In this document: positions 13,465 to 64,000 of the stretch, in pieces
How the letters are laid out: every line of letters starts with the position of its first letter
Position numbering within the stretch: position 1 is the first letter of the stretch
Assembly: GCA_948695535.1 (NCBI GenBank)
Contig: CAPRTS010000007.1
Coordinates: forward strand, 3,164-67,163
Source of the DNA: an uncultured Eubacteriales bacterium
Lineage (GTDB): Bacteria > Bacillota > Clostridia > Christensenellales > UBA1242
Length of the DNA: 64,000 nt
Reading direction: 5' to 3'
Program-made: the position numbers and the translations under genes
The notes under the pieces: model-generated
The model's input: the letters and a program-made list of their open reading frames with translations, nothing else
Told to the model about the DNA's origin: nothing
Databases searched by the model: none

Positions 13465-13490
13465 TTAACCATACTATGTTGGGGGAACGA

Positions 13491-19400: not shown

Positions 19401-21041
19401 GACGATGATCAGTTATTAACCCCCAGTACCAGTATGTACTTTTATCAAGGCGTACCAATAAATAATTACATTTTTACCATGGAAACACGCGTTAATGATA
19501 ATGGTGTAGAAGAATTGTTAGATTTGACTAATTATGAGGCGCATGGCTTACGTTTTATTCCTGCCGAAACCAGTAACCGGCAATTGGTATGGCGTAATGA
19601 AAATCAAGCGTTTCAAGAGTATGACCGTCAAAACAATACCTTGGTATGGCGTTTCGCCGTAGTGTCAAAAGATGAATTTGGACAAACGGTTTACACTAAT
19701 GATTTATATTTGGCAACTACGGGGGTTCCGCGTGCTGACATTAAAGGTTTTACGTTGGCCATTAACGAAGATAATTTGCGACCATATCACGAAACTTACC
19801 GAATTTTGACGGCTGATAAAATTCCCAGTACTGGTATTAGTTTGCGTTTGCAAACAGACAACAACAATGAAACGGGAATCCCAGATGAGTACAACACTTC
19901 CCCTGGTAATAGCGTTTTGGTTGACTGTTACCGCAATGGGGAATTGGTTAAGACTTTGACTCACGAAGAAACTTTTAACCTAACGGCGGGGGACGCTGGT
20001 TATTATCAATTCCGCGTGCACGACTTGGTAGGTAACACGTTGCAGTTTGGTAACAATGGTGCCGAACAGGATTATTATGCATTGGTAATTTTAACTAAAC
20101 CAATGGTGGTAATCAATGATGCCAATCCCGTTAAACACATGATTTATAACGATCGGGTTGAATTTAAAATTACTGATGACGTTGAGCATTTATTACAGTT
20201 AGAGTATGGCGAAGAATTTTTTAACCAATACTTTAAGATCGCCAGTTTAGAAGTTACCTGCAACGGTGAGCCGTTAACCATAGATTTAAAAAGTAATCCT
20301 ACCAGTTTCTTGTGGGATCAACAAGGTACCTACTTAGTGCGCTTAAAATACCAAATTGGTGAAACCTTACAACAAACCATTGAAGACCAATACGAATTTG
20401 AAATTATTCCGCGTTATACCGCAATGGCCAGTTGGAGTATGAATATCTATCCAGATATCCGTATTCTTTCGGTACGGCGTAACAATTATTTGCTGCGCGA
20501 CTTCGTTGAACCGGCTGTCGGAGAGGCTTTAACTTTCGCGGCTGAGGAAAATACGGGACATTACGAAATTGTTTTGCAAAGCCATGATGTGATTAACGGC
20601 TATAAAACGCATACGATTGAGTTCAACATCAATTATAAAAATAGCAATTCGTTGAACTATTTCTGGTTAGATACCGCCAGTGGCTTATCGACAACTACTG
20701 CGGTTACCCTTAGTTACCAGCCTAAAATGCTTTATTACGCACGTGGTGAATGCAGAATTACTCTCTATAAAGATTTCAAAATGGTTGAAACCCGTGAAAT
20801 TAATGCTGATTCGGTGGCCGAAATGGGAATTAACGATTTGGCGACTTTATCGGCAAGTGCTGTCGGTTTGTACACAGTTCAAGTGCTTGATGAGGAGGGT
20901 GACATTGTTTATGCTGACAGTTGGACAATTGCCAAAGGAAAAAGTTCGACAGGAATGATTATCACGGCGATTATTGCGGGTATTGCGGGGCTTGGGTTGA
21001 TTGTGTTTATTCGTTTACGTCGTAAGATAACAGTTAAATAA
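13491..21041 (+). CDS. Giant (~2,516 aa) surface protein with TM segments at both termini and repeated Ig-like modules
   Basis: Uninterrupted ORF. ATG 13491 is preceded by GGGGGAA (13481-13487); the in-frame ATG at 13476 is an alternative start. N-terminal TM: VIAVALLSTVLALLLSGFGFLLGF. C-terminal TM: MIITAIIAGIAGLGLIVFI, followed by an RLRRK tail. A duplicated NGNGQFD acidic loop is present. The module signature GxYxhxhxDxxGN recurs (see findings). Confidence 0.9.
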   Translation: MKYGRGRVIAVALLSTVLALLLSGFGFLLGFSNLQTQAGDNDNYDPYHIPTFDEAYVFDPITTSGEITLGQNAGAATIFALRDESYRSDSVTALFNASQKLGFSSLRNKRNRDPYALFTDADMQSIVNGIGMNDYGVKYDDNNGNGQFDYEDQNGNGQFDVGEDTKQDKFVAYCLQTPVIMLDTINVNQAIVFELLNLPLAPSINKMTQNGENIPIKNIVLASGQNADHVYGSSFTQTTMPMTKEEVKAFNDQKRQEIIQGNVGLNKGDPGWIDPDDPVNYLDYDAMLAKNTYEMIGAGAVASCGTSLRGVFNQEGLYEFDFTLSVPGANGVITEIKLAFAFYITDRSHYTAYPSFPDENRAAGNGNVYNYSFGGEYPMVTYNENYFDVVITSTEKYADSANDDSIQNAGDGRTLQFSAVGEYTMTSYLKNYYFYVDQADPSKSIYRELRLPRYRANVSVLYIRGFQAYYGGQHNQPEYNGPLPFYNASTVNSNITPWVTNNHYNLVDMVKNKNPDANATLAYAKLLTDVLDREDAKKEDDSTKLVPIRTNFPPVQFVGNVNHAYGAGLGGENVRLSTVSFKGVDDFSWGEPTTYEPGKPFTDAGRYLVMMYFWVNKTLCQQTFYFEISNALEMKFAVTGTEGKGYEILEYDELVRKGGRAQGKAITIMYNGATKLGEFEVPPTITLERASLNDPRHFTDIEINKATDGSFNFYLAPACYRLTVVYGAYGQAATVIELLVDNTSATNITTTAQYQQPRLSNLPTNTAIWGMGNITLSWDKKVSGIGFRNVQVDYYRSLIEDAKADPNAAINYTNYDPSQTNLFATTIFSEERTATRDYTPVLADDRWCLTEKFNQAGVYLITLTDDVGNETQYLLIIDDAKPTFVQKSPAPVNSSNVVAYDKNGINVGFGRNKMVMFNVDLANDAPFKDWQQFADLREQQLIVPTATGKYALSIPLAKAEMNVNGGVYETLSRAELELGYKIVYKDDTYYFRVTDVLGNVSEYYIILSNDISRGIIYAEDSEQSFSSTRGFLANNKPNMMTSLVTAKGGMTNRNYLTFSFDQVEKGATAYRVSTIKLEYYPFTFDTKSPNYPFAANPVTYLRGRQDSAGIIYRVDNSEQGDGKGTFRLALYNSGEITPRGLFIITRTYETTSSDDTTRAYYFIVDDRPMLSYEANVYQSDLRIRFGADDKIANAKKFEDFHYELRSNRAAEIAGYSSKYHGTTRYLGYDFPSLIPRFSCVNNGQTTNLGEGAINVVLGNESTGDVNYKLVVADNARNFPVLLTGGAITEIIPTGKSTSANYSELLLILDTGYGTKAQLIKNGQNNTPITNTQMEYDVETGVYTYVVDPDDIKTLTFEFTSDPDSLYADIDIEETTASWFTIGLDHSAYIAPEIDGTIYRYDIANTFLNSAGFRSGARVGVSLITKDNQHTDYNIVFDLDDGEPTYNLRRIIEQDNLAKDLAEIPDGYIYGLSTKFVFAPDTTGNRYLDTKEISYREVNYQGDGSLPKTIFRLDSGLTFADIVGLRDNEMKYFRITETDYAGHVDDYVVQIQGKKYNGAVTYVGAIPDKNTDDGTVLGIEMRVATASAQQFYRNNNSFKFVNGEEYYAVYCGTAKWYLNGKAGTGASSEAELVAVLNEWINDATELGQRCRYVLYDRMGEPKVFACYNLREDAVKLQLEAYNLIPDAVVTSPVCLQTVNYDSLPLILKDPDLAKFYQIKITDVATQRPLDNNLTFTLGITTLYNISQGQELIIEVTDPFNRVSITEYHGQDEVGLQFAPYGNTVDIEGVTYVGDSRGVQFSFLRTVYTINVYNADTGALVGNLPTFIQGDKVTYSFVPSALRADTTRYRLEAVGRSSHAVLYEKIFAFDTRLPQVIWTKSDDQEIAVNDHTFTGTINLHVVPNPMLRFSTTVSYQRTFNGMVEQVTLPKGIETFQFDQSGDYVVTLRNAIWATSVYNFKIANTSEALINVYDDDQLLTPSTSMYFYQGVPINNYIFTMETRVNDNGVEELLDLTNYEAHGLRFIPAETSNRQLVWRNENQAFQEYDRQNNTLVWRFAVVSKDEFGQTVYTNDLYLATTGVPRADIKGFTLAINEDNLRPYHETYRILTADKIPSTGISLRLQTDNNNETGIPDEYNTSPGNSVLVDCYRNGELVKTLTHEETFNLTAGDAGYYQFRVHDLVGNTLQFGNNGAEQDYYALVILTKPMVVINDANPVKHMIYNDRVEFKITDDVEHLLQLEYGEEFFNQYFKIASLEVTCNGEPLTIDLKSNPTSFLWDQQGTYLVRLKYQIGETLQQTIEDQYEFEIIPRYTAMASWSMNIYPDIRILSVRRNNYLLRDFVEPAVGEALTFAAEENTGHYEIVLQSHDVINGYKTHTIEFNINYKNSNSLNYFWLDTASGLSTTTAVTLSYQPKMLYYARGECRITLYKDFKMVETREINADSVAEMGINDLATLSASAVGLYTVQVLDEEGDIVYADSWTIAKGKSSTGMIITAIIAGIAGLGLIVFIRLRRKITVK

Positions 21042-51317: not shown

Positions 51318-53629
51318 AAATTTCGGTTAATTGGTTAAATGATTATGTTGATTTGTCGGGAATTTCCGCTCAGGAAATTGCGGCTAAGTTGACGCAAATT
51401 ACCTGCGAAGTGGAGGAAGTTATTTCGGTTGGTCGGGGACTAGACACGGTAGTGGTGGGCAAAATATTAACGTGTGAAAACCACCCACAAAGTAACCACT
51501 TACACCTATTGACCGTAGATGTTGGCCGTAAACAACCACTACCCATTGTTTGCGGGGCACCGAACGCGCGGGCGGGCTTAACTGTGGCAGTTGCTACCGT
51601 CGGTACGGTAATGCCTAATGGCATGCAAATCGAAGCCGTTAAACTGCGTGGTTATGACAGTTGTGGTATGTGTTGTTCCTATGCCGAGTTAGGCTACCAA
51701 GAAGACAACGATGGAATTATCGAATTGCCCGCTACCACCAAAATTGGCACCCCGATTACCGCGGTTTTACCGGGCTTGGTTGATGATATAATTGATATTG
51801 ATAATAAAAGTATTACTAATCGTCCTGACCTTTGGGGACATTATGGTATCGCTCGTGAATTGGCGGTAATCTTTGACCGTCCGTTGCGTGCGATTAACAC
51901 AACGAACTTACAAGCCTATAATAATTTACCGCCATTAAGCATTAAAATTGAAAATGACTATTGTTTAAGTTACGGTGCAATTAAAGTTGCCCGGGTTGGT
52001 GGTTATGCGTCACCCGCTTTAATCCAAAATCGCTTGTATAAGTTGGGACATAACAGCCACGGTTTGTTGGTGGACTTAACCAATTACATAATGTTGGCGT
52101 TTGGTAACCCATTGCACGCGTTTGACGCGAACAAAATGGGAAAAATCAGTATTGGCGCCGTGCCGTCGGGAACTGAATTTACCACTTTGAAAGACAATCA
52201 AATTACCGCCACTAAGGACATGTTGTTTGTTAAAGCCAACGGTAAGCCCGTGGCCTTGGCCGGTATTATGGGCGGTAAGAACAGCGAGATTACTGATGCT
52301 ACCACCGACGTAATTTTTGAAATTGCAACTTTTGATGCCGCGAATGTGCGTCGCACTTCGGTAACGGTGGGCATTCGCAGTGACGCCAGTATGCGTTACG
52401 AAAAAGCATTGGATCCGGAAACAAATTGGCTGGCGGCGGCAGAATTATTGCGTCTGTTAAAAAAATACGCACCACAAGCTGCTGTGGTTTCGTCCTTTAC
52501 GCGCGTGATGAACGCCAAGGCTGAACGCCCCGTGCAAAAAATTGTAGTGTCCAAACAACGCTTATGCAGTTTTACCGGGGTAGACTTTACCGACCAGTAC
52601 GACTTGGTGCAACGCAAGTTAACGGCCTTGGGTTTCAAGCCGAAAATTACCGCTAAGGACATTACGGTAACGGTGCCGTCGTGGCGCAGTTGGAAAGATA
52701 TTACCACGCCTGCCGATGTGATCGAAGAAATTATCCGTAACTATGGTTACCAAAATATTTTACCAGTAGCACCTACTGCGGAATTATCTCCGTTGCCACA
52801 TGATCCCTATGCCACGGCCAAAGACCAAATCAAAGATACTTTGGCGTGGCAATACGCATTTAGTGAAGTGCATACCAATCTTTGGTACGACACTAAGGCC
52901 TTAAAACGGATGGGGTTAACGCCGGCTACTTACGCCACAATCGCGAACCCGTTTAATCAGGACGATAACCAAATTCGCAGTGCTATGTTGCCCAGTATGC
53001 TGACCGTAGCAGTGAACAATAAGTTACAAACGGCGGTACGTGTCTTTGAGATTGGGCGCGTGATTAACGCGGACGGCAGTGAAAGTGAACACTTGGCCGG
53101 GGTAGTGGTGGCGATGCCTTATCTCGCGGTAGCACAACTGTTAACGGCGACGTTCGACCGCTTGGGTTTCAAGTTGGACTATAAACTTAAGACTTTGAAC
53201 GAACCAACTTTTCACCCGACTAATAATGCCGAAATTTGGTGCAATGGTCAGTTAGTTGGCAAAATTGGTATCATTCATCCGCACGTGATTACTTACGCCC
53301 CGGCTGTTGGTTTTGAAATCAATTTGTCGGCCATCGCGTGGGGCAGTGTTCCGCAAAATTTAGCACCCGTGTTGTCCAAATTCCCCAAAACGGAACTGGA
53401 TTTCACCTTCGTTTGGGACGGCATTTATGCCGAGTTGGCAACTATTATGGCGGGTTTCAAACACCCGTACGTGACGGGACAACGTTTGACGGCCGTGTAC
53501 GAAAACCGTTATACCTTGACCTTTACCGTTTCTTGTCGTGAAAAAACACTTGACAAAGAAGAAATTAAGCAGATTCACCAAGAAATTGTTGACTTTGCTG
53601 CTAAAAATAGTGTACATCTTTATCAGTGA
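51314..53629 (+). CDS. pheT: Phenylalanine--tRNA ligase beta subunit
   Basis: 771 aa. It has the N-terminal tRNA-binding OB domain (MKISVNWLNDYV...VVVGKILTCENHPQSNHLHLLTVDVG) and B3/4 and B5 domains. It overlaps pheS by 4 nt. Confidence 0.95.
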   Translation: MKISVNWLNDYVDLSGISAQEIAAKLTQITCEVEEVISVGRGLDTVVVGKILTCENHPQSNHLHLLTVDVGRKQPLPIVCGAPNARAGLTVAVATVGTVMPNGMQIEAVKLRGYDSCGMCCSYAELGYQEDNDGIIELPATTKIGTPITAVLPGLVDDIIDIDNKSITNRPDLWGHYGIARELAVIFDRPLRAINTTNLQAYNNLPPLSIKIENDYCLSYGAIKVARVGGYASPALIQNRLYKLGHNSHGLLVDLTNYIMLAFGNPLHAFDANKMGKISIGAVPSGTEFTTLKDNQITATKDMLFVKANGKPVALAGIMGGKNSEITDATTDVIFEIATFDAANVRRTSVTVGIRSDASMRYEKALDPETNWLAAAELLRLLKKYAPQAAVVSSFTRVMNAKAERPVQKIVVSKQRLCSFTGVDFTDQYDLVQRKLTALGFKPKITAKDITVTVPSWRSWKDITTPADVIEEIIRNYGYQNILPVAPTAELSPLPHDPYATAKDQIKDTLAWQYAFSEVHTNLWYDTKALKRMGLTPATYATIANPFNQDDNQIRSAMLPSMLTVAVNNKLQTAVRVFEIGRVINADGSESEHLAGVVVAMPYLAVAQLLTATFDRLGFKLDYKLKTLNEPTFHPTNNAEIWCNGQLVGKIGIIHPHVITYAPAVGFEINLSAIAWGSVPQNLAPVLSKFPKTELDFTFVWDGIYAELATIMAGFKHPYVTGQRLTAVYENRYTLTFTVSCREKTLDKEEIKQIHQEIVDFAAKNSVHLYQ

Positions 53630-54669
53630 ACGAGAACATCTTTTACATTGATGCTAAGACCAAAATTGTCGATTTTTTGACGACAGAATTTTCTGGTACG
53701 TTCCCGATTAAACTACAAAACCGTTTCTTGAATTTTTTCCCGCAAATTACCAATTATGAAGAAGAAGGGCATAAGTATAAGCCCGCGATTTTCTTTACTA
53801 ATAACATTGATGCGGTTGTTAAAAATGTGCCCAATGCGACCAAAATCGTGCTGTTTAACGATATTAACGAAAACATGTTTGCTTCTCGTTTGAAGAGTTT
53901 GATTCCGTTTTGTAACTTGAATTGGTGTGTTTACGTTTCCGTTTCGGACGAGAAAACCGAGTATGGTATTTTCCGGATTATCAATAGTATCAAGGACGAA
54001 AGTTTGGAAACAGTGTTGTTTAAGTCACAAACATTGTTAGACAAGAGCAACAAACTGTTTGGTATTTATGTTTATGCCGAAAATACTTGGACCATTACGA
54101 TGCGCAGTTTAAAAGGGCGCATGGTGAACGTTAATTTCGCGTTAGACATTAAAGTGGTTAATAACTGGGAAGACGAAATTAAAGAATTTGTTGATGCCAG
54201 TTTTGCTAAATTGCGTACCAGTTCCAAAAAACTGCAAGACATTAAGAACATGTACAAAAATATCTTTAAAAATGTGATGCGTTCAATTGATGGTACCATT
54301 TGTGTGGTCGTTGATTCTGAATACAAGCCCGATGCTTTTTTTGAAGATGGTATTTGGCTGACGGAACCGATTAACTTGTCGAAACTATTTGCCCAAACCA
54401 ACCAATATAACGAACAAAAATTGACGACCATTGCGGATGTGTTTATGACCATGTTGAATTTTGACGGCATAACCGTAGTGGATAACATGGGACAAATTCG
54501 GGCGTATAACGTGTTTATTGAAACTAACTTGAAAGTTGCTGGCAATATTATGGGCGGTGCCAGAAAACGGGCTGCCTATACAATTATTAACAGTAAACGC
54601 CCTAATATCATTGGTGTTTATTTCCAAAGCCACGAAGGCGAAATGTTTTACGCACCCGTTAAAAGGTGA
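53626..54669 (+). CDS. Protein with a divergent diadenylate-cyclase (DAC/DisA_N) fold C-terminal domain and an unknown N-terminal domain
   Basis: The GTG start overlaps the pheT stop (GTGA). The C-terminal half aligns to the DAC pattern: DGTICVVVD, FDGITVVDNMGQIRAYNVFI, GGARKRAAYTIIN and IIGVYFQSHEGEMFY. The DGA motif is changed to DGI, and RHR to RKR. Confidence 0.5.
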   Translation: MNENIFYIDAKTKIVDFLTTEFSGTFPIKLQNRFLNFFPQITNYEEEGHKYKPAIFFTNNIDAVVKNVPNATKIVLFNDINENMFASRLKSLIPFCNLNWCVYVSVSDEKTEYGIFRIINSIKDESLETVLFKSQTLLDKSNKLFGIYVYAENTWTITMRSLKGRMVNVNFALDIKVVNNWEDEIKEFVDASFAKLRTSSKKLQDIKNMYKNIFKNVMRSIDGTICVVVDSEYKPDAFFEDGIWLTEPINLSKLFAQTNQYNEQKLTTIADVFMTMLNFDGITVVDNMGQIRAYNVFIETNLKVAGNIMGGARKRAAYTIINSKRPNIIGVYFQSHEGEMFYAPVKR

Positions 54670-56144
54670 AAAATTTTCTGTAAGCGTGGCATAATGTCGG
54701 GGAGGTGTTCGCAACCCAACGGGTGTGGCCACTGGTCATTACCAATTTCAACAGTAAACGCGGGTATGCCCATTCTTAAAGCCAAGTAATCAGTTAACCC
54801 GCCGTACGAATTTACGGACATGACGGCGCGATATTGAGTTAACTCGGCAATGTTTTGGGCAGTGGTTTGGTCGGCCACCCGACTGTAATAGATAACTTCA
54901 CCTTTACTGTGTAAGGCTAGGCTAAGCGTTGGGTGGAAAGTGTTGATTAGTCGTAACAAGGCTTTGGTTTCCGGTTCACTGTGGGGGCGTCGCCCAATGT
55001 AGTTAGCAGGAGCGGGAGTAGTTAGGTTGCTGTGACCTTGCCCCCAGCCCGCGTCGTAATTGACATTCAAATCAACTGCGCGGGCGTTAGCTTTCCATAG
55101 ACTAAAATCAGTACTACCAAGATTGATACGTTGTAAGCGTTGGTGATAACGGCGGGGTACAGTGGTTAACCCTTGGGTAGCCAACGCGACACCATCGGGG
55201 TTACAATTTGGTACTAAAATTACCGCTACATCGTGGGGTAGATCACGGCACAACGGCAAAAGACCGTGGACAGCATTAACAGTCAACCACTCGCGCGCGT
55301 GCATACCACCGGTAATTAACAGCCGTTGTTTAGCCGATGGCTCGCCGAATAGGTAGGCAATCAGTGGCCGGTGTAAAACACTGTAACCAATAATATTGAT
55401 TGAATCTAAGTATTGTAGGTCATGATAATCGCGTACGCCGTCGGGGAGTGTATCTGTTCCGCAAAAGTCTGTGCCGATTTGTAAATGTTGACGTCCAAAA
55501 TGTTTAATAAAGTACAAATAGTGTTTTACAAAATCACAAAAACCACAATGGGTTGTGTTTTTAGTTAAAAACTTGGGTACTAAACATAAACCTACGGTGC
55601 CACCAGATTTGATGATAGTGCGCACTTGGCGGTTGGTTAAATTGCGTGGGTGGTGGCAAAGTGTGTTTAAAGCGGTGTGGGTGCAAAGCATGGGTTGTGT
55701 GGTTACGCGGGCAAACTGGTAGAAACTACGACGGTTTAAGTGGGCAGTGTCAATTTGAATACCTGCATCTTCCAAAGCCTTTATGACTTGGTACCCCCAC
55801 CGGGTAATGCCGCGGCGACTTTTGGCACCACCCGCCAAGGAGTTAGCGGCGTTCCACGTTAAACCGACGCTGTGGGGGCGCAATTTGAGAAAAGCCTCCA
55901 AATTATCAGGCGTTAAAAACCAAGCGTCTTCAATGTGTAAACGACATACGGGATAGGCAGAATCGCGGTTTAATTTATCTATCAAGCGCTTTTTGACTTT
56001 GATGGTGGCCATCGGGTCAGGCAGGCGGGTAGTCCAAACCGATAACCAAATTTCACTAACACCGTCGCTTTTGGCTTTTTGTAAATAAGTGCGCAACTTG
56101 CTGGCGGGTAGGGCTAACAATGCGTCATTATGTAAATCAATCAT
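54648..56144 (-). CDS. Fusion of an M19 (renal-type) dipeptidase domain and an M14 (gamma-D-Glu-mDAP peptidase-like) carboxypeptidase domain
   Basis: N-terminal half: IDLHNDAL, VGLTWNAANSLAGG, IQIDTAHLN, CTHTALNTLCHHPRNL (M19 pattern). C-terminal half: LITGGMHAREWLT (the HxxE zinc site), VPNCNPDG, VDLNVNYDAGWG, PHSEPET, ALHSKGEVIY (M14 pattern). There is no signal peptide. Confidence 0.8.
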   Translation of the reverse strand: MIDLHNDALLALPASKLRTYLQKAKSDGVSEIWLSVWTTRLPDPMATIKVKKRLIDKLNRDSAYPVCRLHIEDAWFLTPDNLEAFLKLRPHSVGLTWNAANSLAGGAKSRRGITRWGYQVIKALEDAGIQIDTAHLNRRSFYQFARVTTQPMLCTHTALNTLCHHPRNLTNRQVRTIIKSGGTVGLCLVPKFLTKNTTHCGFCDFVKHYLYFIKHFGRQHLQIGTDFCGTDTLPDGVRDYHDLQYLDSINIIGYSVLHRPLIAYLFGEPSAKQRLLITGGMHAREWLTVNAVHGLLPLCRDLPHDVAVILVPNCNPDGVALATQGLTTVPRRYHQRLQRINLGSTDFSLWKANARAVDLNVNYDAGWGQGHSNLTTPAPANYIGRRPHSEPETKALLRLINTFHPTLSLALHSKGEVIYYSRVADQTTAQNIAELTQYRAVMSVNSYGGLTDYLALRMGIPAFTVEIGNDQWPHPLGCEHLPDIMPRLQKIFHLLTGA

Positions 56145-56169
56145 TGGTTATGCTTATGCGGGGAAGCAG

Positions 56170-56199
56170 TTGCTAAACACTACTAAATTGTGGTATATT
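56170..56199 (+). promoter_or_regulatory. Candidate promoter for ssrA
   Basis: TTGCTA (56170-56175), an 18-nt spacer ending in TGG, then TATATT (56194-56199). This is an extended -10 type, about 25 nt upstream of the mature 5' end. Confidence 0.45.
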
Positions 56200-56223
56200 G
56201 ATAATAGGACTAACACAAGCCGT

Positions 56224-56586
56224 GGGGGCGATTGGCTTCGACGGTTGGCGGGCGGTTCGTTAAGCATACCGGCGGGGAAACCATACGTTAATTGGTTTCA
56301 AAAAGACAAATGCAAGTCCCAAAAATGCAAACTTGGCTTTGGCTGCGTAAGTAGTTAAAGAACCAACGAACGACGCGTTTAACCCTTTTAACGATCGTTC
56401 GCCAACAAAGGGTGAATGGGACAGTATCTCCTTGGTTAACGGAAATATTGTTCGGCACCAAAGTTAACCCTAACCGTATTACTTTGTCGTTAATTTAGCG
56501 GTTGGTAAATAAGATAACGACTATGTATGTAGAAGTACGAACCAGAAACCAATCGGACCCGGGTTCAATTCCCGGCGTCTCCACCA
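56224..56586 (+). ncRNA. ssrA: tmRNA (transfer-messenger RNA)
   Basis: The 5' end GGGGGCGATTGGCTTCGACGG pairs with the 3' end CGTCTCCACCA, including the G3:U pair. The T-arm is CCCGGGTTCAATTCCCGG, and the CCA is encoded. The tag reading frame is GCA AGT CCC AAA AAT GCA AAC TTG GCT TTG GCT GCG TAA (56312-56350), which encodes ASPKNANLALAA*. Confidence 0.9.
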
Positions 56587-58120
56587 CAACAGGGGTATAC
56601 GCACACCTTTTTGAAAGAGAAATCGCTTTGACGGTTTCTTTTTTGTTTGTATTGTTTATTTCATCGTTTCCGTCAGGGTAATCGGGGAAGATTAAGTTCA
56701 TCAGCAGTTCTTCTTTTTGTCCGCTTTTTAGATGAAATAAAATTTTTATTTTGTCTTCATATAGAATTACGCGGTAGATTAGCGTGTTAATTAACGCCTT
56801 GCGATTTTGGAAATTGTCATAATCAAGGTTGCGGAAGTGCTGTAACCATTGCCGAATATCAGCGTAACTATAATCAATTTGCATAGCTTTTTCGGTATCA
56901 ATTGTCGCGGTCAGTTCTTTGTTTTCTGTCTCCAATTTTTCAACCTGTGCCAAAATGGCGTCGGTGGCTCGGCCGTGCATTAACGCTTGCATGAGGTTGT
57001 CGATGGACTTTTGATTAGACGCGATCAAGTTCTCTAAACGTTTAATCTCGCTGTCATTTTGTTCCGCTTTAATGAGTGTGTAAGTCTCGGCGGCGACCAT
57101 GTCGATAAACTCATCGGTTAGAGTGTGAACGATTTCCTGCACAACGGCGTCTTCAATCTCTTTTTTACGCACAGCACGTTTGTCGCATTGACGCGATGGA
57201 AGCACATTAACACAGCGATAATAATGGTGCAATTTACCACTTTTGCTGGTCGCACTGATTCCCGTCATCTTGGCGCCACATTTGCCACAAATCAATTTAT
57301 CGGAGAGTAGGTAAGGAACTTTCGCTTTACCACGAGCCGGTGCGGTGGCGTATTTAGCCAGCACCTGTTGTACTTGCTCAAATAATTCATCATCAATAAT
57401 TCGCGGAATTCCACCGTCGGTTTCTTGACCTTGAAAAATATATTTGCCTAAATATCGGCGGTTGCCGAAAATACTGCGAAAACTGTTCTTGTTCCACTTC
57501 GCTCCGTGGGCGGTTTTAATGCCACGTTCATTTAGGGAATTACCAATTTGCACATAGTTATATCCATTGGCCAACATTTGAAACATTTGCTTTACAATCG
57601 GGGCAGTGTTCTCGTCAATAACAATATTTTTCTCGGTGTCAACCTTGTAGCCGAGCGGTACAGAGCCACCAAAGAATTTGCATTTAGACGCCGAGATCGC
57701 AATCCCGCGTTTGATCTTTTGAGCGAGTTCAGCGGAGTAGTATTCCGCCATACTTTCTAAAACGCCTTCAATCAAAATACCACTGGCATCATCGGTAATG
57801 TTCTCTTTGGCGGATAATACCCGTACACCATTTTTCTTTAACTTAGATTTGTAAATTGCACTATCATAGCGGTTACGAGCAAAACGGTCTAATTGGTAGA
57901 CAATGACAAATTGAAAAGCCTTTTTCTTGCTGTCTTCAATCATTTGTAAAAAGTCGGGGCGTTTGTCCGTTGTCCCGGTTAAGTCACGGTCAATGTATTC
58001 GTGAATAATGTGCAAATCACTGCGTTTGGCGAATGCGTAACATTCGGCCAACTGTCCTTCGATAGACTGTTCGTTTTGTCCGTGCGAACTGAACCGTGCG
58101 TAAATTACTGCATTTTTCAT
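56495..58120 (-). CDS. Large serine recombinase (integrase)
   Basis: The N-terminal resolvase catalytic domain is AVIYARFSSHGQNEQSIEGQ, with Ser in the YxRxSS context. A recombinase domain follows, then the zinc ribbon CGKCGAKMTG...YYRC and a coiled-coil region. ATG 58120 is preceded by AAGGAG. The last ~31 codons are antisense to the ssrA 3' domain. Confidence 0.9.
   Translation of the reverse strand: MKNAVIYARFSSHGQNEQSIEGQLAECYAFAKRSDLHIIHEYIDRDLTGTTDKRPDFLQMIEDSKKKAFQFVIVYQLDRFARNRYDSAIYKSKLKKNGVRVLSAKENITDDASGILIEGVLESMAEYYSAELAQKIKRGIAISASKCKFFGGSVPLGYKVDTEKNIVIDENTAPIVKQMFQMLANGYNYVQIGNSLNERGIKTAHGAKWNKNSFRSIFGNRRYLGKYIFQGQETDGGIPRIIDDELFEQVQQVLAKYATAPARGKAKVPYLLSDKLICGKCGAKMTGISATSKSGKLHHYYRCVNVLPSRQCDKRAVRKKEIEDAVVQEIVHTLTDEFIDMVAAETYTLIKAEQNDSEIKRLENLIASNQKSIDNLMQALMHGRATDAILAQVEKLETENKELTATIDTEKAMQIDYSYADIRQWLQHFRNLDYDNFQNRKALINTLIYRVILYEDKIKILFHLKSGQKEELLMNLIFPDYPDGNDEINNTNKKETVKAISLSKRCAYTPVVVETPGIEPGSDWFLVRTSTYIVVILFTNR
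56562..56606. repeat. Predicted attL (attB left arm + core + attP right arm)
   Basis: GGTTCAAT (56562-56569), N10, TCCACCA (56580-56586), N10, ATACGCACAC (56597-56606). Confidence 0.55.
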
Positions 58121-58180
58121 TTTTTACTCCTTTTTTGCCTTAAAAGGCAATGGCTCGCCATTGCTGCTTGGTTACCCGTC

Positions 58181-58285
58181 CCACTGGCGACAGCAAGGAC
58201 AGTCAAGGGTCTGCCACACAGTGGACGGCGTTTTATGCCTAACGGGAGATAAATCGCCGCCCTTGACGGTGCTTGCCGCCAGTGG
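58181..58285. repeat. GC-rich nested inverted repeats (long imperfect hairpin) upstream of the serine recombinase gene
   Basis: The outer arms CCACTGGCG (58181-58189) and CGCCAGTGG (58277-58285) pair. The inner arms GTCAAGGG (58202-58209) and CCCTTGAC (58260-58267) pair. Smaller hairpins, such as CCACACAGTGG, lie inside. Confidence 0.6.
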
Positions 58286-58421
58286 TAGCAGAGACAAAAC
58301 ATTGTTTTACAGTAGATTTAATTCACTGATTTAATTTGTGGGTTTTTGTCGTAATCTTGTGTAACTTGACGATTATAAGTAATTTATTGTAAAACCGTGA
58401 ACTTTTGCCTTCGCTCCTGCC

Positions 58422-58541
58422 TATAGTTAGGGGGTAAATTTTATAAAAACCTTGATTTTTACCACTTCTCGTGGGTATAGGTAGGGGCTATTAAAAAATA
58501 AAACCTTAACACCCCTGTCCCTAAGTGTTTATAAGTAGGGG
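58422..58541 (+). repeat. Three direct repeats TATA(G/A)(T/G)TAGGGG spaced exactly 54 bp apart
   Basis: TATAGTTAGGGG at 58422-58433, TATAGGTAGGGG at 58476-58487 and TATAAGTAGGGG at 58530-58541. The first two copies are also followed by a related ATAAAA(A)CCTT segment. Confidence 0.85.
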
Positions 58542-58638
58542 ATCGTGTGGGCAAGGCGGCTGCGCCGCCATTGCCCACGGGCGTGTATAGTATTACCACG
58601 CCACCCCGTAACACTGTAACAACTTAAAAGGAGTGAAA

Positions 58639-58836
58639 ATGAGTAAAACAAGTCAGTTACAATCATTACCAAGTCCATTTGACGGCATTTCGGTTATTTA
58701 TTTTGATGATGAAAACCGCAATCATCATGTGCGGTTACCAGCAGATAAAAAACTAGCCAATCAGTTGGCTAAATTGATTTATCATGATGCCAAAATCGCA
58801 ATCAGTGAAAATTACCAAAAGGAGCAAACAAAATGA
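58639..58836 (+). CDS. Small (65-aa) protein translationally coupled to the tyrosine recombinase; possible accessory or DNA-binding factor
   Basis: AAAGGAG (58627-58633) lies 5 nt upstream of ATG 58639. The stop overlaps the recombinase ATG (ATGA). I recognised no family. Confidence 0.5.
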   Translation: MSKTSQLQSLPSPFDGISVIYFDDENRNHHVRLPADKKLANQLAKLIYHDAKIAISENYQKEQTK

Positions 58837-59768
58837 ATTATTTAACTTGGTTAAACGAGTGGTTGGAAAATTATGTAAAGCCAACTCATAAGGCACGGAC
58901 TTACGAGCGTTATCAACAAATTGTTAATACGCACATATTGACAAATTTAGGGGATTATGACTTAAACGCAATCACGCCCTTACTTCTGCAGAAGTACATT
59001 ACCAACTTGTTGCAACATGGCAATCGACTAACTGGACAGGCATTATCCGCGAATACTGTCAATGGTATTATCTCCATTTTACAGTCGTCATTGAAAATGG
59101 CGTATACTTTGGGTTTGTGTCGTGAATACGTCGGTAACAAAATTGTGCGTCCCAAAATCACCGAAAAGCAAGTTGCGTGTTTCAGTTTGACAGAGCAAAA
59201 AAAAATGGAGCAATACATTTTAACCAGTAAAAAATACAAGCTTTATGGCGTGATAATTTGTTTGTATACGGGACTGCGGATTGGCGAATTGTTAGCGTTA
59301 GAGTGGGCCGATCTCGATTTTAGTAAAGGCATTTTGACGGTATCCAAAACCGCATACGATAACCACGGCCAACGCTATATTGACCGCCCGAAAACTGCTA
59401 ATTCGCATCGTATGATTCCGCTGCCCAAACAATTAGTTCCCGTGTTGAAAGACTTGAAAAGAAATACGCAATCTAACTGGGTAGTGGTGGACAAGAATAA
59501 CCAGCCAGTATCGGTCCGCAGTTACCAACGCAGTTTTGAATTATTGCAATACAAATTAAAAATTGCTCATAAAGGTTTCCACGCTTTACGGCATACTTTC
59601 GCCACGCGAGCGTTAGAGTGCGGTATGGACGTAAAATCACTTTCCGAAATTCTTGGACACAAAAACACTAATATAACACTAAATCGTTACGTACATTCGT
59701 TGTTGGAACACAAGCAAGAAATGATGTCAAAATTGGGTAAAATTTTGACATCCGCGCCAGAGAAATGA
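58833..59768 (+). CDS. Tyrosine recombinase (phage-integrase/XerD-like family), candidate invertase
   Basis: 311 aa with an N-terminal SAM-like core-binding domain. Catalytic motifs: TGLRIGELLAL (Arg), HALRHTFATRAL (HxxR) and LGHKNTNITLNRYVH (His, Tyr). Confidence 0.9.
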   Translation: MNYLTWLNEWLENYVKPTHKARTYERYQQIVNTHILTNLGDYDLNAITPLLLQKYITNLLQHGNRLTGQALSANTVNGIISILQSSLKMAYTLGLCREYVGNKIVRPKITEKQVACFSLTEQKKMEQYILTSKKYKLYGVIICLYTGLRIGELLALEWADLDFSKGILTVSKTAYDNHGQRYIDRPKTANSHRMIPLPKQLVPVLKDLKRNTQSNWVVVDKNNQPVSVRSYQRSFELLQYKLKIAHKGFHALRHTFATRALECGMDVKSLSEILGHKNTNITLNRYVHSLLEHKQEMMSKLGKILTSAPEK

Positions 59769-59797
59769 ATAAACTGAGAAAACTGTTATGAAATTGT

Positions 59798-59824
59798 GTT
59801 CATCAAATATTTTAATCGGTGTAC
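59798..59824. promoter_or_regulatory. Candidate recombinase core site L (arm-spacer-arm)
   Basis: GTTCATCAA-ATATTTTAA-TCGGTGTAC. The first 19 nt are the exact reverse complement of 59934-59952. Confidence 0.6.
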
Positions 59825-59838
59825 ATCTTACTGTAAAA

Positions 59839-59868
59839 ACTATACCATAACCACCCATAAATTGTAAA
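59839..59868 (-). promoter_or_regulatory. Strong promoter-like element inside the candidate invertible segment, currently facing away from the methyltransferase operon
   Basis: On the minus strand: TTTACA (59868-59863), an 18-nt spacer ending in TGG, then TATAGT (59844-59839). This is the extended -10 type. Confidence 0.5.
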
Positions 59869-59925
59869 TCTGTTATTAAAATTGTACATTTACACAACAT
59901 TTACCGCCACAAAATTCTAAGTTCT

Positions 59926-59952
59926 GTTCATCAATTAAAATATTTGATGAAC
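59926..59952. promoter_or_regulatory. Candidate recombinase core site R (arm-spacer-arm)
   Basis: GTTCATCAA-TTAAAATAT-TTGATGAAC has perfect 9-bp inverted arms. Its asymmetric 9-bp spacer is the reverse complement of the site L spacer. Confidence 0.6.
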
Positions 59953-59991
59953 AAAATTTTTTTATTGTGTGCATGAAATAGGAGTTTACAA

Positions 59992-60930
59992 ATGGCGAAT
60001 CAATCACTTAATAAGGCAAAAATTGAAAAAAACGATGAATTTTATACGTTGATGAGTGATATAGAAAATGAATTATCGCGCTATGATTTCGCTCAATTCA
60101 AAGATAAAATTGTTTATTGTAATTGCGATGATCCAACTTGGAGTAATTTTTTTAAATTTTTCACTAAATGGGGAAAACGCATGGGAATTAAAGAAGTCCA
60201 TTTTACAAATTACGCTAATACAAAAAGAAAATGGAATAAACAATTAACACTTTTTGAAGCGCTTGACTTAAAAGAAAGTGCAGAAGATGATAGATGTGGT
60301 ACTGCACATCACTGGACATTTTATCCAGATTCTAATCGAATTGTTAAAAAAAGTCTTAAGGGGAACGGCGATTTCCGCAGTCCTGAGTGTATTGAAATCT
60401 TAAAAAGGTGCGATATTGTTGTGACTAATCCACCATTTAGTATTTTTAATGACTTTCTAAAGTTACTAATTGAATATAAAAAATATTATTTAGTCATTAG
60501 CGATGATAATAAACTATCTAATATTGATATTTTCCCTTTGATTAAAGATAATAAACTTTGGTTGGGTTATACTCGTGTAAAAAAATTTTTGCAACCAGAC
60601 GGCACATATAAAACTTTTGGTAATAAATGTTGGTATACTAATTTAGAAGTAACCTACCGTAGGCAACCGATTGTCCTTCATGATCAAGACCTAACTCAAT
60701 TCAAAAAGTATGATAACTACAACGCTCTTGAAATTTCTGAAGTTAAGTATATTCCTGATGGATATTATGAGCCCATCGGATTACCAATAACATTTTTGCA
60801 TAAATTTTGTCCTGAGCAGTTTGAAATAGTTGGTATGTCTGGTGTTGATATAAAGATTAAGGGTGGACGATTTTATGTAAGTGGCAGACGCTTACAGCCA
60901 AGATTAGTTATTCAAAGGAGAAAAGCATAA
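59992..60930 (+). CDS. N6-adenine DNA methyltransferase (EcoRI-methylase-like family)
   Basis: The N-terminus is NDEFYTLMSDIENEL...IVYCNCDDP and the catalytic motif IV is VVTNPPFS. AGGAG lies 8 nt upstream of the ATG. Confidence 0.85.
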   Translation: MANQSLNKAKIEKNDEFYTLMSDIENELSRYDFAQFKDKIVYCNCDDPTWSNFFKFFTKWGKRMGIKEVHFTNYANTKRKWNKQLTLFEALDLKESAEDDRCGTAHHWTFYPDSNRIVKKSLKGNGDFRSPECIEILKRCDIVVTNPPFSIFNDFLKLLIEYKKYYLVISDDNKLSNIDIFPLIKDNKLWLGYTRVKKFLQPDGTYKTFGNKCWYTNLEVTYRRQPIVLHDQDLTQFKKYDNYNALEISEVKYIPDGYYEPIGLPITFLHKFCPEQFEIVGMSGVDIKIKGGRFYVSGRRLQPRLVIQRRKA

Positions 60931-60931
60931 G

Positions 60932-62008
60932 ATGCAATATCAGATCGCAATTAGAACAATTAAAGATTTGCTAAATGACAAGGTTTATTTAACCAATATT
61001 AATATGCAAAGGAAGTATATTTATAATCATGAACAGGCTTCGCATTTACTTGATAGTATCCAAAAGGGGATCCCAATCCCAGCAATTTATTTGTGGGATA
61101 ACTGTGATGGCACTTATGACGTATTAGATGGGAAACAGAGAATAACTGTCATGCGTTTATATGTTAATCCTAAATACTTACCTGGCGGTGTCCATAACTT
61201 TTTTATTGATCACATGAACAGTAATGATTTTGAAAGTTATCAAATCCCAGTGATTATTTGCTCGGGTACGGAAGAAGAAAAGGTTGAAACATTTAAGCGA
61301 ATCAATACAACTGCAGTGGCCTTAAAAGAGTTTGAAATTTACAATGCATTGTATCAAGGAACTTTTGTTGAAGAACTCGGTAACTGGGGTATTGGCTTAT
61401 CTCCAAATGAAGAATTATTCTTCGGCAAAAGTATTAGGGGTGAAAACTGTATCAGGGCAGTAAAATTATTTACCGAAAGACTAGAGGATTATTTTAAGCA
61501 CAATCGTAATCAGTCTTTTGTGAATGGTTTGAAGAAGCAAATTGATGTTCTGGTTAAAACCACACTTGATTTATTTAATGATTACGGAAATGATTATTAT
61601 ATTTTAGCCAAAATTGTACTTGAAAATATTAATAACAATTCGTTAATTGCCAGTTGGAAATTAAACCAAAAAACAATTAATGATTTGTTGGTAGAGTATG
61701 CTAATAATGGTGAATTAGCCAACGCTCCAAGTCGCGAAAGTTTTTATAAAGAATTATTGGGTTGCTATACAGTTACTGGGTTAGACGGTAAACGCTTCTT
61801 TACGAAAGATGATAAAAAAACTTTGTATGAAAAATTAAGTAAAGGACTAAGTAGCGGAAAAAGGATTTGCCCAACCTGTGGTAAAGAGTTTAGTTTTGAT
61901 CAATTTGAAGTTGACCACGTTTTACCTTGGAGCAAGGGTGGCAAGACGTGTTTGGCTAATGCGCAGTTATTATGCAAAAGCTGCAATGTAAAAAAAAGTA
62001 ATCAGTAA
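60932..62008 (+). CDS. DUF262 (ParB/GmrS-like) - HNH nuclease fusion
   Basis: N-terminus: IPIPAIYLW...VLDGKQRIT, a DGQQR-type DUF262 motif. C-terminus: CPTCGKEF...EVDHVLPWSKGGKTCLANAQLLCKSCNVKKSN, an HNH domain with two CxxC pairs. The gene starts 1 nt after the methyltransferase stop. Confidence 0.85.
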   Translation: MQYQIAIRTIKDLLNDKVYLTNINMQRKYIYNHEQASHLLDSIQKGIPIPAIYLWDNCDGTYDVLDGKQRITVMRLYVNPKYLPGGVHNFFIDHMNSNDFESYQIPVIICSGTEEEKVETFKRINTTAVALKEFEIYNALYQGTFVEELGNWGIGLSPNEELFFGKSIRGENCIRAVKLFTERLEDYFKHNRNQSFVNGLKKQIDVLVKTTLDLFNDYGNDYYILAKIVLENINNNSLIASWKLNQKTINDLLVEYANNGELANAPSRESFYKELLGCYTVTGLDGKRFFTKDDKKTLYEKLSKGLSSGKRICPTCGKEFSFDQFEVDHVLPWSKGGKTCLANAQLLCKSCNVKKSNQ

Positions 62009-62058
62009 TAAATACAAGGGACTTATAGATAAATAAAAATCGCTAATGATCTCTCACC

Positions 62059-63144
62059 CTAGAATGGCAGATAAAATTCGTCAGGTGAATTAATTTTCTC
62101 ATCAGAGGGCACATCTTCGAAAATACTTAATAACATATTGATTCTTTCTAATAATTCGTCATAACAGATAATACTTATAGAACGTAACTCATTCCTAAAA
62201 TTCTCAAAACTGTTCTTCGCATCTGGTGTAAGTGTGGAGTAATTACCAACCAACAAGATACAGTGAATGTTGTTTGCTTCTACATCTAATTTTGAATTAA
62301 CTTTAAGAGAATTAAATTCTTTATACAAGGAATCTTTTTGTGAAAGTAATTGTATTAAACTACCTGTTAGCTCGGTCGTAATTGGTAAAATCCCAGCACG
62401 ATATGAAGTATTTTGAGTTAGTGTAGTAACTGGCGTTTTTATCTCAATAATGGATACGTTTTTTGTTATCCCGTTTTGGTATATAAAATCAGGCTTTTTT
62501 CCACCATTAAAATCAAAACTCTTTCCGCCAACATAATGACATCCTTGCATAATCATATAGGGGGTGTTGAATAATTGTGATAGTATCCATGAGTTTTTCT
62601 CAAATAAAGGTTGCCAAAAGCCAACTTCGTCGCTGTTATTTAGATTATTTTTTATTTCTTCCTTAATTCGTTTAAGATATTCAATATTTAATGCCCAATT
62701 GATATTGGTTAAATCAACTGATTTTAATAACTTGACTAACTCTTCCTTGTTTTTTAGCAGTTCTTTGAACTTATCATATTCTTCATCTTTTAAGGTGTAA
62801 GTTACTTCTTCCCATGGTGTGTTCTTATCTTTTACGAGTTTGTATCTCTCAGTTAATGCTTGCCATAATTTGTATGTTTGGCTGCATGATAAGGCAAGCT
62901 CAAAACTTTCACCTGATTTAATCGACCTCTTGTTTAATGAGATAACATCATTAAAAGTGCTATCACTCTTTTTTACAGTATAGATGAACTTTCCACGTAA
63001 TTTTTCTTGATAGTTTTTTGGATTATTAATTTGTTGTAACTCAAAACGGACTTGGGAACGACCTGATTCGTCTAAAATAACAATTGGTGTAACATCGGCT
63101 GTAATGTATGATGTTGGTGTAATAGTAATTTCATTATTATCCAT
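62059..63144 (-). CDS. Shedu-like defence nuclease (DUF4263, PD-(D/E)xK fold)
   Basis: 361 aa. The C-terminal domain reads GGKKPDFIYQNGITKNVSIIEIKTP (D...ExK), followed by LIQLLSQKDSLY and HCILLVGNYSTL. This matches the DUF4263/SduA pattern. Confidence 0.7.
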   Translation of the reverse strand: MDNNEITITPTSYITADVTPIVILDESGRSQVRFELQQINNPKNYQEKLRGKFIYTVKKSDSTFNDVISLNKRSIKSGESFELALSCSQTYKLWQALTERYKLVKDKNTPWEEVTYTLKDEEYDKFKELLKNKEELVKLLKSVDLTNINWALNIEYLKRIKEEIKNNLNNSDEVGFWQPLFEKNSWILSQLFNTPYMIMQGCHYVGGKSFDFNGGKKPDFIYQNGITKNVSIIEIKTPVTTLTQNTSYRAGILPITTELTGSLIQLLSQKDSLYKEFNSLKVNSKLDVEANNIHCILLVGNYSTLTPDAKNSFENFRNELRSISIICYDELLERINMLLSIFEDVPSDEKINSPDEFYLPF

Positions 63145-63238
63145 GATTTATTGTAGCATATAATATTGTGAATGACTATTTAAGTGTGTAATGCTAACCT
63201 GACAATAGAAGTTGGTCCTATTAGCAATCAATATTGTA

Positions 63239-63289
63239 GTGTGCGTATTCAAGGCGTGCAGTTCCACCAAACGTACCAAAGATTGAACC
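63239..63289. repeat. Predicted attR (attP left arm + core + attB right arm)
   Basis: GTGTGCGTAT (63239-63248), N14, TCCACCA (63263-63269), N12, ATTGAACC (63282-63289). Confidence 0.55.
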
Positions 63290-63550
63290 TTTCAAGTTAA
63301 GGTAACGCCTTATGACCGGGAATTTTACCCCGGCGGGTTCTGTCACTGTGTGCCAGATAGCTCGCTCACTACGTTCGCTCGCTATCACTTCCCGCTATTT
63401 CTACCACAGACAAATAATCCAAAATTCGTCGCGTAGCGGAACTAGAATGTTATTTTATCGCATGTGTTTTATGCGTAGAACTGTTTGGGGATAGTAATGA
63501 AATTTTGCAGGTAATTTTTAGTGGCAGTAAAACGCCCGTTTCCGTAAATT

Positions 63551-63778
63551 ATGGGGAATAAACTGCGAACAAATGTTGCTGACCAATGGTATGCCTTACG
63601 CAATGCACCCAAAAAACGTAAATTCCAAAAATGGTGTCGCGAGAACAATATTTTTGGGCTTGACGTTGTTGGCAGCAAACGGGTTGACTATGACGCACTG
63701 CAACGTGATCTTCAAGGTGTCATAGCCGAAGTTGACGCCACCAATTTAGCGGCTGCTGACGAAAAGGGTAACGGCTGA
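63551..63778 (+). CDS. Hypothetical 75-aa protein
   Basis: An ORF with plausible composition (basic N-terminus, acidic C-terminus). I recognised no family and no clear RBS. Confidence 0.3.
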   Translation: MGNKLRTNVADQWYALRNAPKKRKFQKWCRENNIFGLDVVGSKRVDYDALQRDLQGVIAEVDATNLAAADEKGNG

Positions 63779-63798
63779 TTTTGCTCACGTTCTTTTCC

Positions 63799-63827
63799 TT
63801 GAATAATGGGTAGTTGTGTGCTATAAT
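63799..63827 (+). promoter_or_regulatory. Candidate promoter giving a near-leaderless transcript
   Basis: TTGAAT (63799-63804), a 17-nt spacer ending in TGC, then TATAAT (63822-63827). ATG 63837 lies only about 10 nt downstream. Confidence 0.4.
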
Positions 63828-63836
63828 ATTATTTGT

Positions 63837-64000
63837 ATGGATAACAGTAATAAGTTAAAACAATTCAACCAAACGGCGAACTTGCGACCGAAAGTTACGT
63901 TGCCGACGGCGGCAGAAATTGCACAAGTTCCTTATTTCAGTTACGAACTAACCGACTTCGCAATGTTCAGTGGCGCCCGTCAAGTCAGTGAATGTTACGA
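63837..64000 (+). CDS. 5' part of an unidentified gene running off the window
   Basis: Open frame MDNSNKLKQFNQTANLRPKVTLPTAAEIAQVPYFSYELTDFAMFSGARQVSECY... with no stop before the window end. It is absent from the ORF track because it is partial. Confidence 0.4.
   Translation, partial: MDNSNKLKQFNQTANLRPKVTLPTAAEIAQVPYFSYELTDFAMFSGARQVSECY

Follow-up and report, generated by a model that had tools for sequence, protein, structure and literature searches.

A 64-kb stretch of DNA from an uncultured Eubacteriales bacterium (64,000 nucleotides of contig CAPRTS010000007.1, referred to here as the window) carries ssrA, the gene for transfer-messenger RNA (tmRNA), directly followed by what is, judging from the sequence, very probably an integrative island (6683 bp) whose own large serine recombinase placed it at the very 3′ terminus of that gene. 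The island lies between two direct copies of the terminal tmRNA heptamer TCCACCA, from one of which to the other its length is counted, and contains from left to right the genes for the serine recombinase (reverse strand), a small protein, a tyrosine recombinase, a methyltransferase, an endonuclease, and the Shedu protein SduA (Table 1). ssrA is intact despite the insertion, its T-arm and acceptor 3′ end forming the B half-site of the bacterial attachment site attB.

Both attachment sites can be assembled from the two junctions. The outer arms, GGTTCAAT (56562-56569) and ATTGAACC (63282-63289), form an 8-bp inverted repeat with spacers of 10 and 12 nucleotides (nt) to the core, and the inner arms, GTGTGCGTAT (63239-63248) and ATACGCACAC (56597-56606), form a 10-bp inverted repeat with spacers of 14 and 10 nt. 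The predicted attB is GGTTCAATTCCCGGCGTCTCCACCAAACGTACCAAAGATTGAACC, the predicted island site attP is GTGTGCGTATTCAAGGCGTGCAGTTCCACCACAACAGGGGTATACGCACAC, and the predicted empty-site junction downstream of ssrA is GGCGTCTCCACCA joined directly to AACGTACCAAAG. Both sites are short, with imperfect inverted arms around a shared core of 6-7 bp, and attL and attR are hybrids of the two. A preliminary description of this DNA had reported the two TCCACCA copies, the perfect arms with their spacers, and a single serine recombinase gene in the window, at the left end of the island; all of these proved exact, and a tblastn search of the 64 kb returned no second serine recombinase. Its reading of the sites as attB and attP of a large serine recombinase is backed by the P and P′ arms of ten islands, the CCA-end targets, and the B′ motif described below. 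Since TCCACCA occurs four times on the forward strand between 56000 and 64000, its repetition is uninformative alone. Among 5000 shuffles, six gave a perfect inverted repeat of at least 10 bp between the inner 40-mers, as did five among 5000 random window pairs, a chance level of ~0.001 (about 1 in 1000). For the 8-bp outer repeat, the corresponding counts were 30 and 103.

Comparison with related loci revealed where recombinases of this family reside. More than 5000 homologs were returned by a protein search, most of them 70-75% identical. Eighty loci were fetched from species-representative genomes, 52 of which encode a recombinase at least 60% identical to that of the window, and 44 of these 52 have a readable junction. 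This junction lies at the CCA end of a tRNA or tmRNA gene in 38 of the 44 loci, 10 abutting tmRNA (six tmRNA genes overlooked by ARAGORN were recovered with Rfam) and 28 abutting tRNA genes (10 Leu, 9 Glu, 4 Ala, 2 Lys, 1 Arg, 1 Pro, and 1 left untyped by ARAGORN). In all 38, the RNA gene is on the strand opposite to the recombinase gene and the junction is at its 3′ CCA. Recombinases that are 95-97% identical were found at different tRNA-like genes sharing all or most of the terminal core, the pairs of targets being tmRNA and tRNA-Glu, tmRNA and tRNA-Ala, and tRNA-Lys and tRNA-Leu. A P arm of the form N9-GTATA[CA]G[CA]ACAC stands at a constant distance from CCA in more than 40 related loci. 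Of the remaining six junctions, four (L015, L031, L048, and L060) face the tail of another serine recombinase of distant relationship, and two (L049 and L052) have a similar pseudo-tRNA end, although the fetched DNA yielded no second recombinase there. Two further junctions lack an RNA-gene call, one abutting an uncalled tRNA-like 3′ end (L051) and the other being without a tRNA-like flank (L057).

The pseudo-tRNA ends in L015, L031, L048, and L060 had been considered as P′ arms of the family; this was rejected after tblastn identified them as tails of the second recombinase. That enzyme (28-42% identical) is encoded tail to tail with the family recombinase (at 10542-11959 in L015, and likewise in the other three loci), and in L015, L031, and L060 a real tRNA gene is located 3-7 kb farther on. 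Two types of island appear to stand in tandem there, at a single tRNA gene.

Ten related islands, spanning 2.8-11.5 kb, are complete within the fetched DNA (L018, L028, L029, L030, L033, L035, L054, L055, L059, and L066), and the att architecture they share is directly observable. At their right ends, host DNA begins after GTGTKCGT and a further 23 nt that terminate in xCACCA; at their left ends, CCA is followed by 12 nt and ACGMACAC. The geometry of the window island is identical, namely GTGTKCGT-N23 (ending in CCA)-N12-ACGMACAC, and the attP proposed in the preliminary description is therefore that of the family. The CAGTTCCACCA of the window recurs unchanged in L018 and L028. The sequence common to attP and attB follows the target, being GCACCA for tRNA-Leu, TCACCA for tRNA-Glu, and TCCACCA for tRNA-Ala and tmRNA, and the identity ends in every case at the final A of CCA. 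On the host side, the attB arm ATTGAACC has counterparts of the form TYGAAC at other targets: in the window and in L028, L030, L033, and L059 this hexamer stands at nt 14-19 after CCA, and L064 and L067 have near-matches. TYGAAC mirrors the T-loop sequence GTTCRA across the core, so that attB amounts to a T-arm facing an inverted pseudo-T-arm.

The product of the recombinase gene carries a resolvase catalytic domain (PF00239, 9e-28, residues 4-142) followed by a Recombinase domain (PF07508, 2.7e-19) and a zinc ribbon (PF13408, 8e-14), and its N-terminal domain matches the structure of the TP901-1 integrase (3bvp, 1.9e-10). In an alignment with 18 homologs, the motif Y7-A8-R9-x-S11 and cysteines 278, 281, 303, and 312 are invariant; residues ~340-420 look rich in heptads when judged by eye, a coiled-coil motif inserted in the zinc ribbon being characteristic of large serine recombinases. 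The element encodes only the portion at 56587-58120, whereas the last ~30 codons are antisense ssrA: the frame has no stop inside the element, crosses attL, and terminates 92 nt into the antisense strand of ssrA. The gene is situated at the margin of the element without a stop codon, and its reading frame therefore passes through the P arm and on into whatever sequence adjoins the junction. The same holds for all 18 aligned homologs, which read through attL into antisense tRNA or tmRNA. They are conserved up to ...GCAYTPV[MV]VE and then diverge into unrelated tails starting with GFEP, GIEP, GLEP, or GVEP, which correspond to the T-loop of tRNA, GGTTCRAnnCC, translated from its antisense strand, while the conserved codons for CAYT are the P-arm DNA TGTGCGTATAC. 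With such a stopless frame, the tail of the protein must differ between the integrated and the excised forms.

Comparison of strains and species fixed the boundaries of the island. A second, near-identical strain (L002 and L006) is 99.7-100% identical to the window over the 4.5 kb up to the CCA of ssrA. Beyond it, identity is 75-92% over most of the next 1.5 kb, with one 300-nt stretch at 100%, the P arm differs (CCACAGGAGTATACGAAC), and the recombinase allele is clearly different. In L002, host identity breaks exactly after CCA, which, together with the attR layout common to the ten islands, upholds the base-pair boundaries given in the preliminary description. In a sister species whose flanking peptidase is 75% identical, the same island backbone is present at ssrA, with identities of 87% for the serine recombinase, 81% for the tyrosine recombinase, 92% for the methyltransferase, and 91% for the endonuclease. 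Shedu is replaced in its distal cargo by two proteins, one of 247 amino acids (aa) that weakly matches a Type IV endonuclease and one of 720 aa of the HATPase_c_3 type (L095, 965-4078), and the distal cargo slot is therefore variable.

These data suggest the following course of events. One recombinase dimer would bind attB, consisting of the tmRNA T-arm and acceptor end (GGTTCAAT...TCCACCA) plus the inverted pseudo-T-arm downstream (...ATTGAACC), and another would bind the island attP, GTGTGCGT-N23-N12-ACGCACAC. Strand exchange at a dinucleotide inside the shared xCACCA would then preserve ssrA at attL and create another copy of TCCACCA at attR. Variants of GT[TG]CR[AT][AT]T are present in each of the four half-sites; the motif stands 5 nt farther from CCA in the P′ arm than in the B arm, and the right half-sites show no such offset. 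From structures of the LI (A118) integrase, a 5-nt motif offset is expected between attP and attB half-sites. A broader scheme, put forward tentatively and as rather doubtful, is that a tRNA-like T-arm with its acceptor end serves as a generic attB half-site and a mirror-image pseudo-T-arm as the other, that targets are switched mainly through the 5-7-nt terminal core of attP, and that the stopless gene, by giving a tail that differs with the state of integration, could act as a built-in sensor.

Several observations weigh against insertion by the serine recombinase. Within the att sites, the dyad of the attB arms falls on C74 of the tRNA-like end and that of the attP arms on position 71. As the two are 3 nt apart, no single crossover dinucleotide is equidistant from both arm pairs. 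In the tRNA-Leu group, moreover, the dinucleotide at the attP dyad would be the palindrome GC, which is unable to set polarity, so that the symmetry argument does not place the crossover. A crossover dinucleotide derived from symmetry was rejected on these two grounds, and the exchange would be located within CACCA, no finer. Beyond the sites themselves, the same type of island occupies the same site in two species, and an old, fixed insertion would look alike. A same-species empty site was not found: every contig covering either junction carries the island, and searches with the flanking genes (the peptidase gene, a 75-aa gene, and a 360-aa gene) gave occupied same-species contigs only, the 360-aa neighbour having a single distant homolog, in a different context. 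The predicted attB 24-mer was absent from an exact scan of the JGI metagenomes, in which the genus itself is unrepresented, and a scan of the same metagenomes for the tmRNA 3′ end returned unrelated organisms only. The attP junction of a circular form, which the preliminary description had proposed to look for, was found neither by an exact scan of IMG/VR nor, as attP-like tandem junctions, by a regular-expression search of all fetched loci.

The proposed search for empty sites led to unoccupied sites in related species. In L102, a different species whose peptidase is 79% identical, ssrA is unoccupied and no recombinase follows it. The flank after TCCACCA reads AACAAAACCTAAATTGAAC, which matches the B′ arm of the window at 12 of 19 positions, with TTGAAC in register. 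Against this stands the fact that L102 is another species, whose flank diverges from that of the window ~20 nt after CCA. The unoccupied sites of two more distant relatives (L116 and L117) are without the TYGAAC motif. The pattern of unoccupied sites in related species fits the predicted attB, as evidence from other species rather than from the same one. As a separate observation, the ~20 nt of L102 (AACAAAACCTAAATTGAAC) are extra, standing between CCA and a flank like that of L116 and L117, and this insert is nearly identical to the B′ arm at an unrelated tRNA-Ala site in L028 (AAAACCTAAATCGAAC).

The alternative that best withstands these data also starts from an insertion by the serine recombinase, and holds that the island is now a fixed, vertically inherited resident without excision. 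This is possible, although on balance unlikely. It would account for the presence of the island on all same-species contigs, from at least five samples, for the shared backbone at the same site in the sister species, for the failure of attB and attP junctions to appear in any collection searched, and for the absence from the window island of a sigma-like gene of related islands. It is harder to reconcile with the intactness of both att arms, the catalytic residues, and the recombinase frame, and their agreement with the family consensus, with the clearly different recombinase allele at the site in a near-identical host strain, or with the identity between the two species of 87% for the recombinase as against 75% for the flanking peptidase. 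The element had been called a mobile defence island in the preliminary description. The restriction-modification pair and the Shedu cargo bear out the defence; mobility can only be inferred, no attB or attP junction having been found, and current mobility is unproven.

Aside from the serine recombinase, the island encodes a second site-specific recombinase, of the tyrosine class, and the view that this enzyme placed the island in ssrA with the serine recombinase as a passenger has to be considered. Integration into tRNA and tmRNA genes is usually the work of tyrosine integrases (PMC4383910), and the gene here is intact, with a SAM-like N-terminal domain. However, the duplication is only 7 bp long and no tRNA-gene fragment is regenerated, the frame that spans attL is that of the serine recombinase, and tblastn detected no homolog of the tyrosine recombinase in the related islands with the same att arms, its homologs being limited to the islands of the window and the sister species. 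Furthermore, the gene adjoins a pair of 35-nt inverted repeats (59791-59825 and 59925-59959) around a 99-nt segment that precedes the genes for the methyltransferase and the endonuclease. In the sister species, a homologous block of 111 nt is exactly inverted between L095 and L096 on the one hand and L097 and L100 on the other, with identical flanks (L095 and L097, 6240-6520), so that both orientations are demonstrated, in that species only. Since no homolog was detected in related islands with the same att sites and an inversion has occurred beside the gene in the sister species, a role of the tyrosine recombinase as island integrase was rejected, and the passenger view is very improbable. 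The enzyme is probably the invertase of the adjacent switch, although its matches to invertase families in NCBIfam are weak (E-values of 4e-5, far below cut-off). The segment contains TTTACA-18-TGnTATAGT on the reverse strand, a consensus match only, the number of promoter-like sites not exceeding that in shuffles, and in the orientation of the window these promoter-like sites point away from the restriction-modification genes. Most likely, the segment is a phase switch that precedes the restriction-modification pair and would be flipped by the tyrosine recombinase of the island. Finally, it is scarcely credible that the repeats arose by coincidence and that the foreign DNA has its true ends at other positions: TCCACCA does occur four times in 8 kb, an 8-bp inverted repeat appears in 0.6-2% of controls, and GGTTCAAT is simply the tmRNA T-loop, but the sequence and spacing of the P and P′ arms are conserved in independent islands, the identity of L002 breaks exactly at CCA, and the B′ motif is repeated at other targets.

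Table 1. Features of the ssrA island and its junctions (positions in the 64-kb window)
Feature	Position	Strand	Evidence or remarks
ssrA (tmRNA gene)	56224..56586	+	ARAGORN (tag ASPKNANLALAA); Rfam RF00023, 145.7 bits
Large serine recombinase, 541 aa	56495..58120	-	Pfam Resolvase, Recombinase, Zn_ribbon_recom; PHROG 95 integrase, 7e-119
attL	56562..56606	+	B arm GGTTCAAT..., core TCCACCA 56580-56586, P arm CAACAGGGGT + ATACGCACAC (56597-56606)
Structured non-coding element, ~66 nt	58202..58267	-	Roughly 80-150 nt upstream of the recombinase start codon
Small protein, 65-67 aa	58633..58836	+	Homologs in the island family
Tyrosine recombinase, 311 aa	58833..59768	+	Pfam Phage_integrase, SAM_3; NCBIfam Xer-, integron-, and invertase-like, all below cut-off
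Invertible DNA switch (predicted from the sister species)	59791..59959		35-nt inverted repeats around a 99-nt segment, 89% complementary
EcoRI-type adenine methyltransferase (Type II)	59992..60930	+	Pfam PF13651, 4.7e-83; PADLOC MTase_II, 3.4e-74
Restriction endonuclease, GmrSD_N (DUF262) and HNH domains	60932..62008	+	Pfam PF03235, PF01844; PADLOC REase_II, 3.6e-31
Shedu defence nuclease SduA	62059..63144	-	Pfam SduA_N, SduA_C; PADLOC SduA, 1.2e-104
attR	63239..63289	+	P′ arm GTGTGCGTAT + TCAAGGCGTGCAGT, core TCCACCA 63263-63269, B′ arm AACGTACCAAAG + ATTGAACC

The cargo of the island is defensive in character. The methyltransferase and endonuclease genes are adjacent, with 1 nt between them, and are a predicted Type II restriction-modification pair. 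PADLOC and Pfam identify the product of the last gene as an SduA protein with the DUF4263 nuclease domain that characterizes Shedu. The G+C content falls to 0.28-0.35 over 59800-63200, compared with ~0.42-0.44 at the recombinase end and ~0.42-0.51, mostly 0.45-0.50, in the host flank. The AT-rich cargo that the preliminary description had drawn up to 63263 is thus real over this interval, but as G+C drops only there, just the right half of the island is AT-rich and the recombinase end is near the composition of the host.

The small protein matches nothing in Pfam, NCBIfam, PHROGs, or PADLOC. Many related islands encode homologs with 41-53% identity at ~130 nt from their right end, and the protein is a candidate directionality factor or regulator. 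Directly upstream of its gene, a stretch of ~37 nt (58585-58621) is 87-100% identical in most related islands and may be a promoter or operator. In several of these islands (L029, 7112-7537, with equivalents in L033, L035, and L059), a sigma-70-like protein of 141 aa and then the small protein are encoded near the right end, and the cargo is located between this pair and the recombinase gene. In the window island, the sigma-like gene is absent and the cargo is placed after the small gene. The cargo of the related islands appeared acetyltransferase- and transporter-like from N-terminal sequences inspected by eye, with no family search.

Nearly all loci of the family share, at 80-95% identity, the structured element that precedes the recombinase gene, a conservation exceeding that of the recombinase protein. 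Its consensus fold has three stems, with compensatory changes in six pairs, and includes CCCTTGACA; Rfam gave no match for this element or for the other non-coding stretches. Inside it, at position 58218, the window has A and the public record (L001, L009, and L104) has G, the sole difference between the two across 53551-64000. Elsewhere in the window, the forward strand contains two giant open reading frames of 6804 aa (26414-46828) and 2521 aa (13476-21041), the former with counterparts of ~6500-6800 aa in related species. A low-G+C frame of 347 aa (53626-54669), which shares 22 nt with the 3′ end of the peptidase gene, keeps this position in all relatives examined and has no match in Pfam or PADLOC.

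Integration into tRNA and tmRNA genes has been treated as the domain of tyrosine integrases (PMC4383910), and mobilizable elements with serine recombinases have been reviewed as integrating within genes (PMC5704250). One clear precedent for a serine recombinase at such a target was found, confined to ssrA of Dehalococcoides (PMC3146451), in a literature search that did not cover the large computational catalogues of serine integrases. The family described here is large, with its more than 5000 database homologs in gut Clostridia and their relatives, and targets the CCA terminus, an invariant feature, of many tRNA-like genes. The att sites of the family are readable to the base, and its demands on attB seem modest, namely a T-arm, a terminal core, and a pseudo-T-arm in inverted orientation. 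If active, these enzymes would provide natural integrases whose target sites exist in every bacterium and would explain the spread of small defence and resistance islands in gut Firmicutes.

The closest known counterparts are the ssrA islands of Dehalococcoides with the serine recombinase DsiB, described by McMurdie et al. in 2011 (PMC3146451), which were compared by their published description. Both are integrative islands with variable cargo, in which a serine recombinase gene of ~540 codons on the reverse strand directly adjoins attL at ssrA. The DsiB islands are, however, inserted in the T-loop with a 20-bp direct repeat, whereas exchange in the window would take place in the last 5-7 nt and leaves 7 bp, and their six-gene module, with a second small serine recombinase (DsiA) and RecF-like and ParB-like proteins, is absent from the window island. 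The window family, unlike the DsiB islands, also uses ordinary tRNA genes.

Other systems resemble parts of the island. The integrases of A118 (LI), TP901-1, Bxb1, and phiC31 and TnpX of Tn4451 have the same set of domains as the window recombinase and share its short att sites with imperfect inverted arms and a small common core; their known members target protein-coding genes or intergenic DNA, unlike the window family. Islands of the Islander type likewise occupy the 3′ end of ssrA, keep the gene functional, and carry accessory cargo, yet they depend on a tyrosine integrase and duplicate a tRNA-gene fragment of 15-50 nt, in contrast to the serine class of enzyme and the 7-bp repeat seen here. 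The switch, in turn, is reminiscent of FimB/FimE-type switches and of the invertons of gut bacteria, where inverted repeats likewise surround a short segment with a tyrosine recombinase gene adjacent and an operon downstream, a likeness limited by the weak invertase matches, by both orientations coming from the sister species, and by a promoter that is a consensus match.

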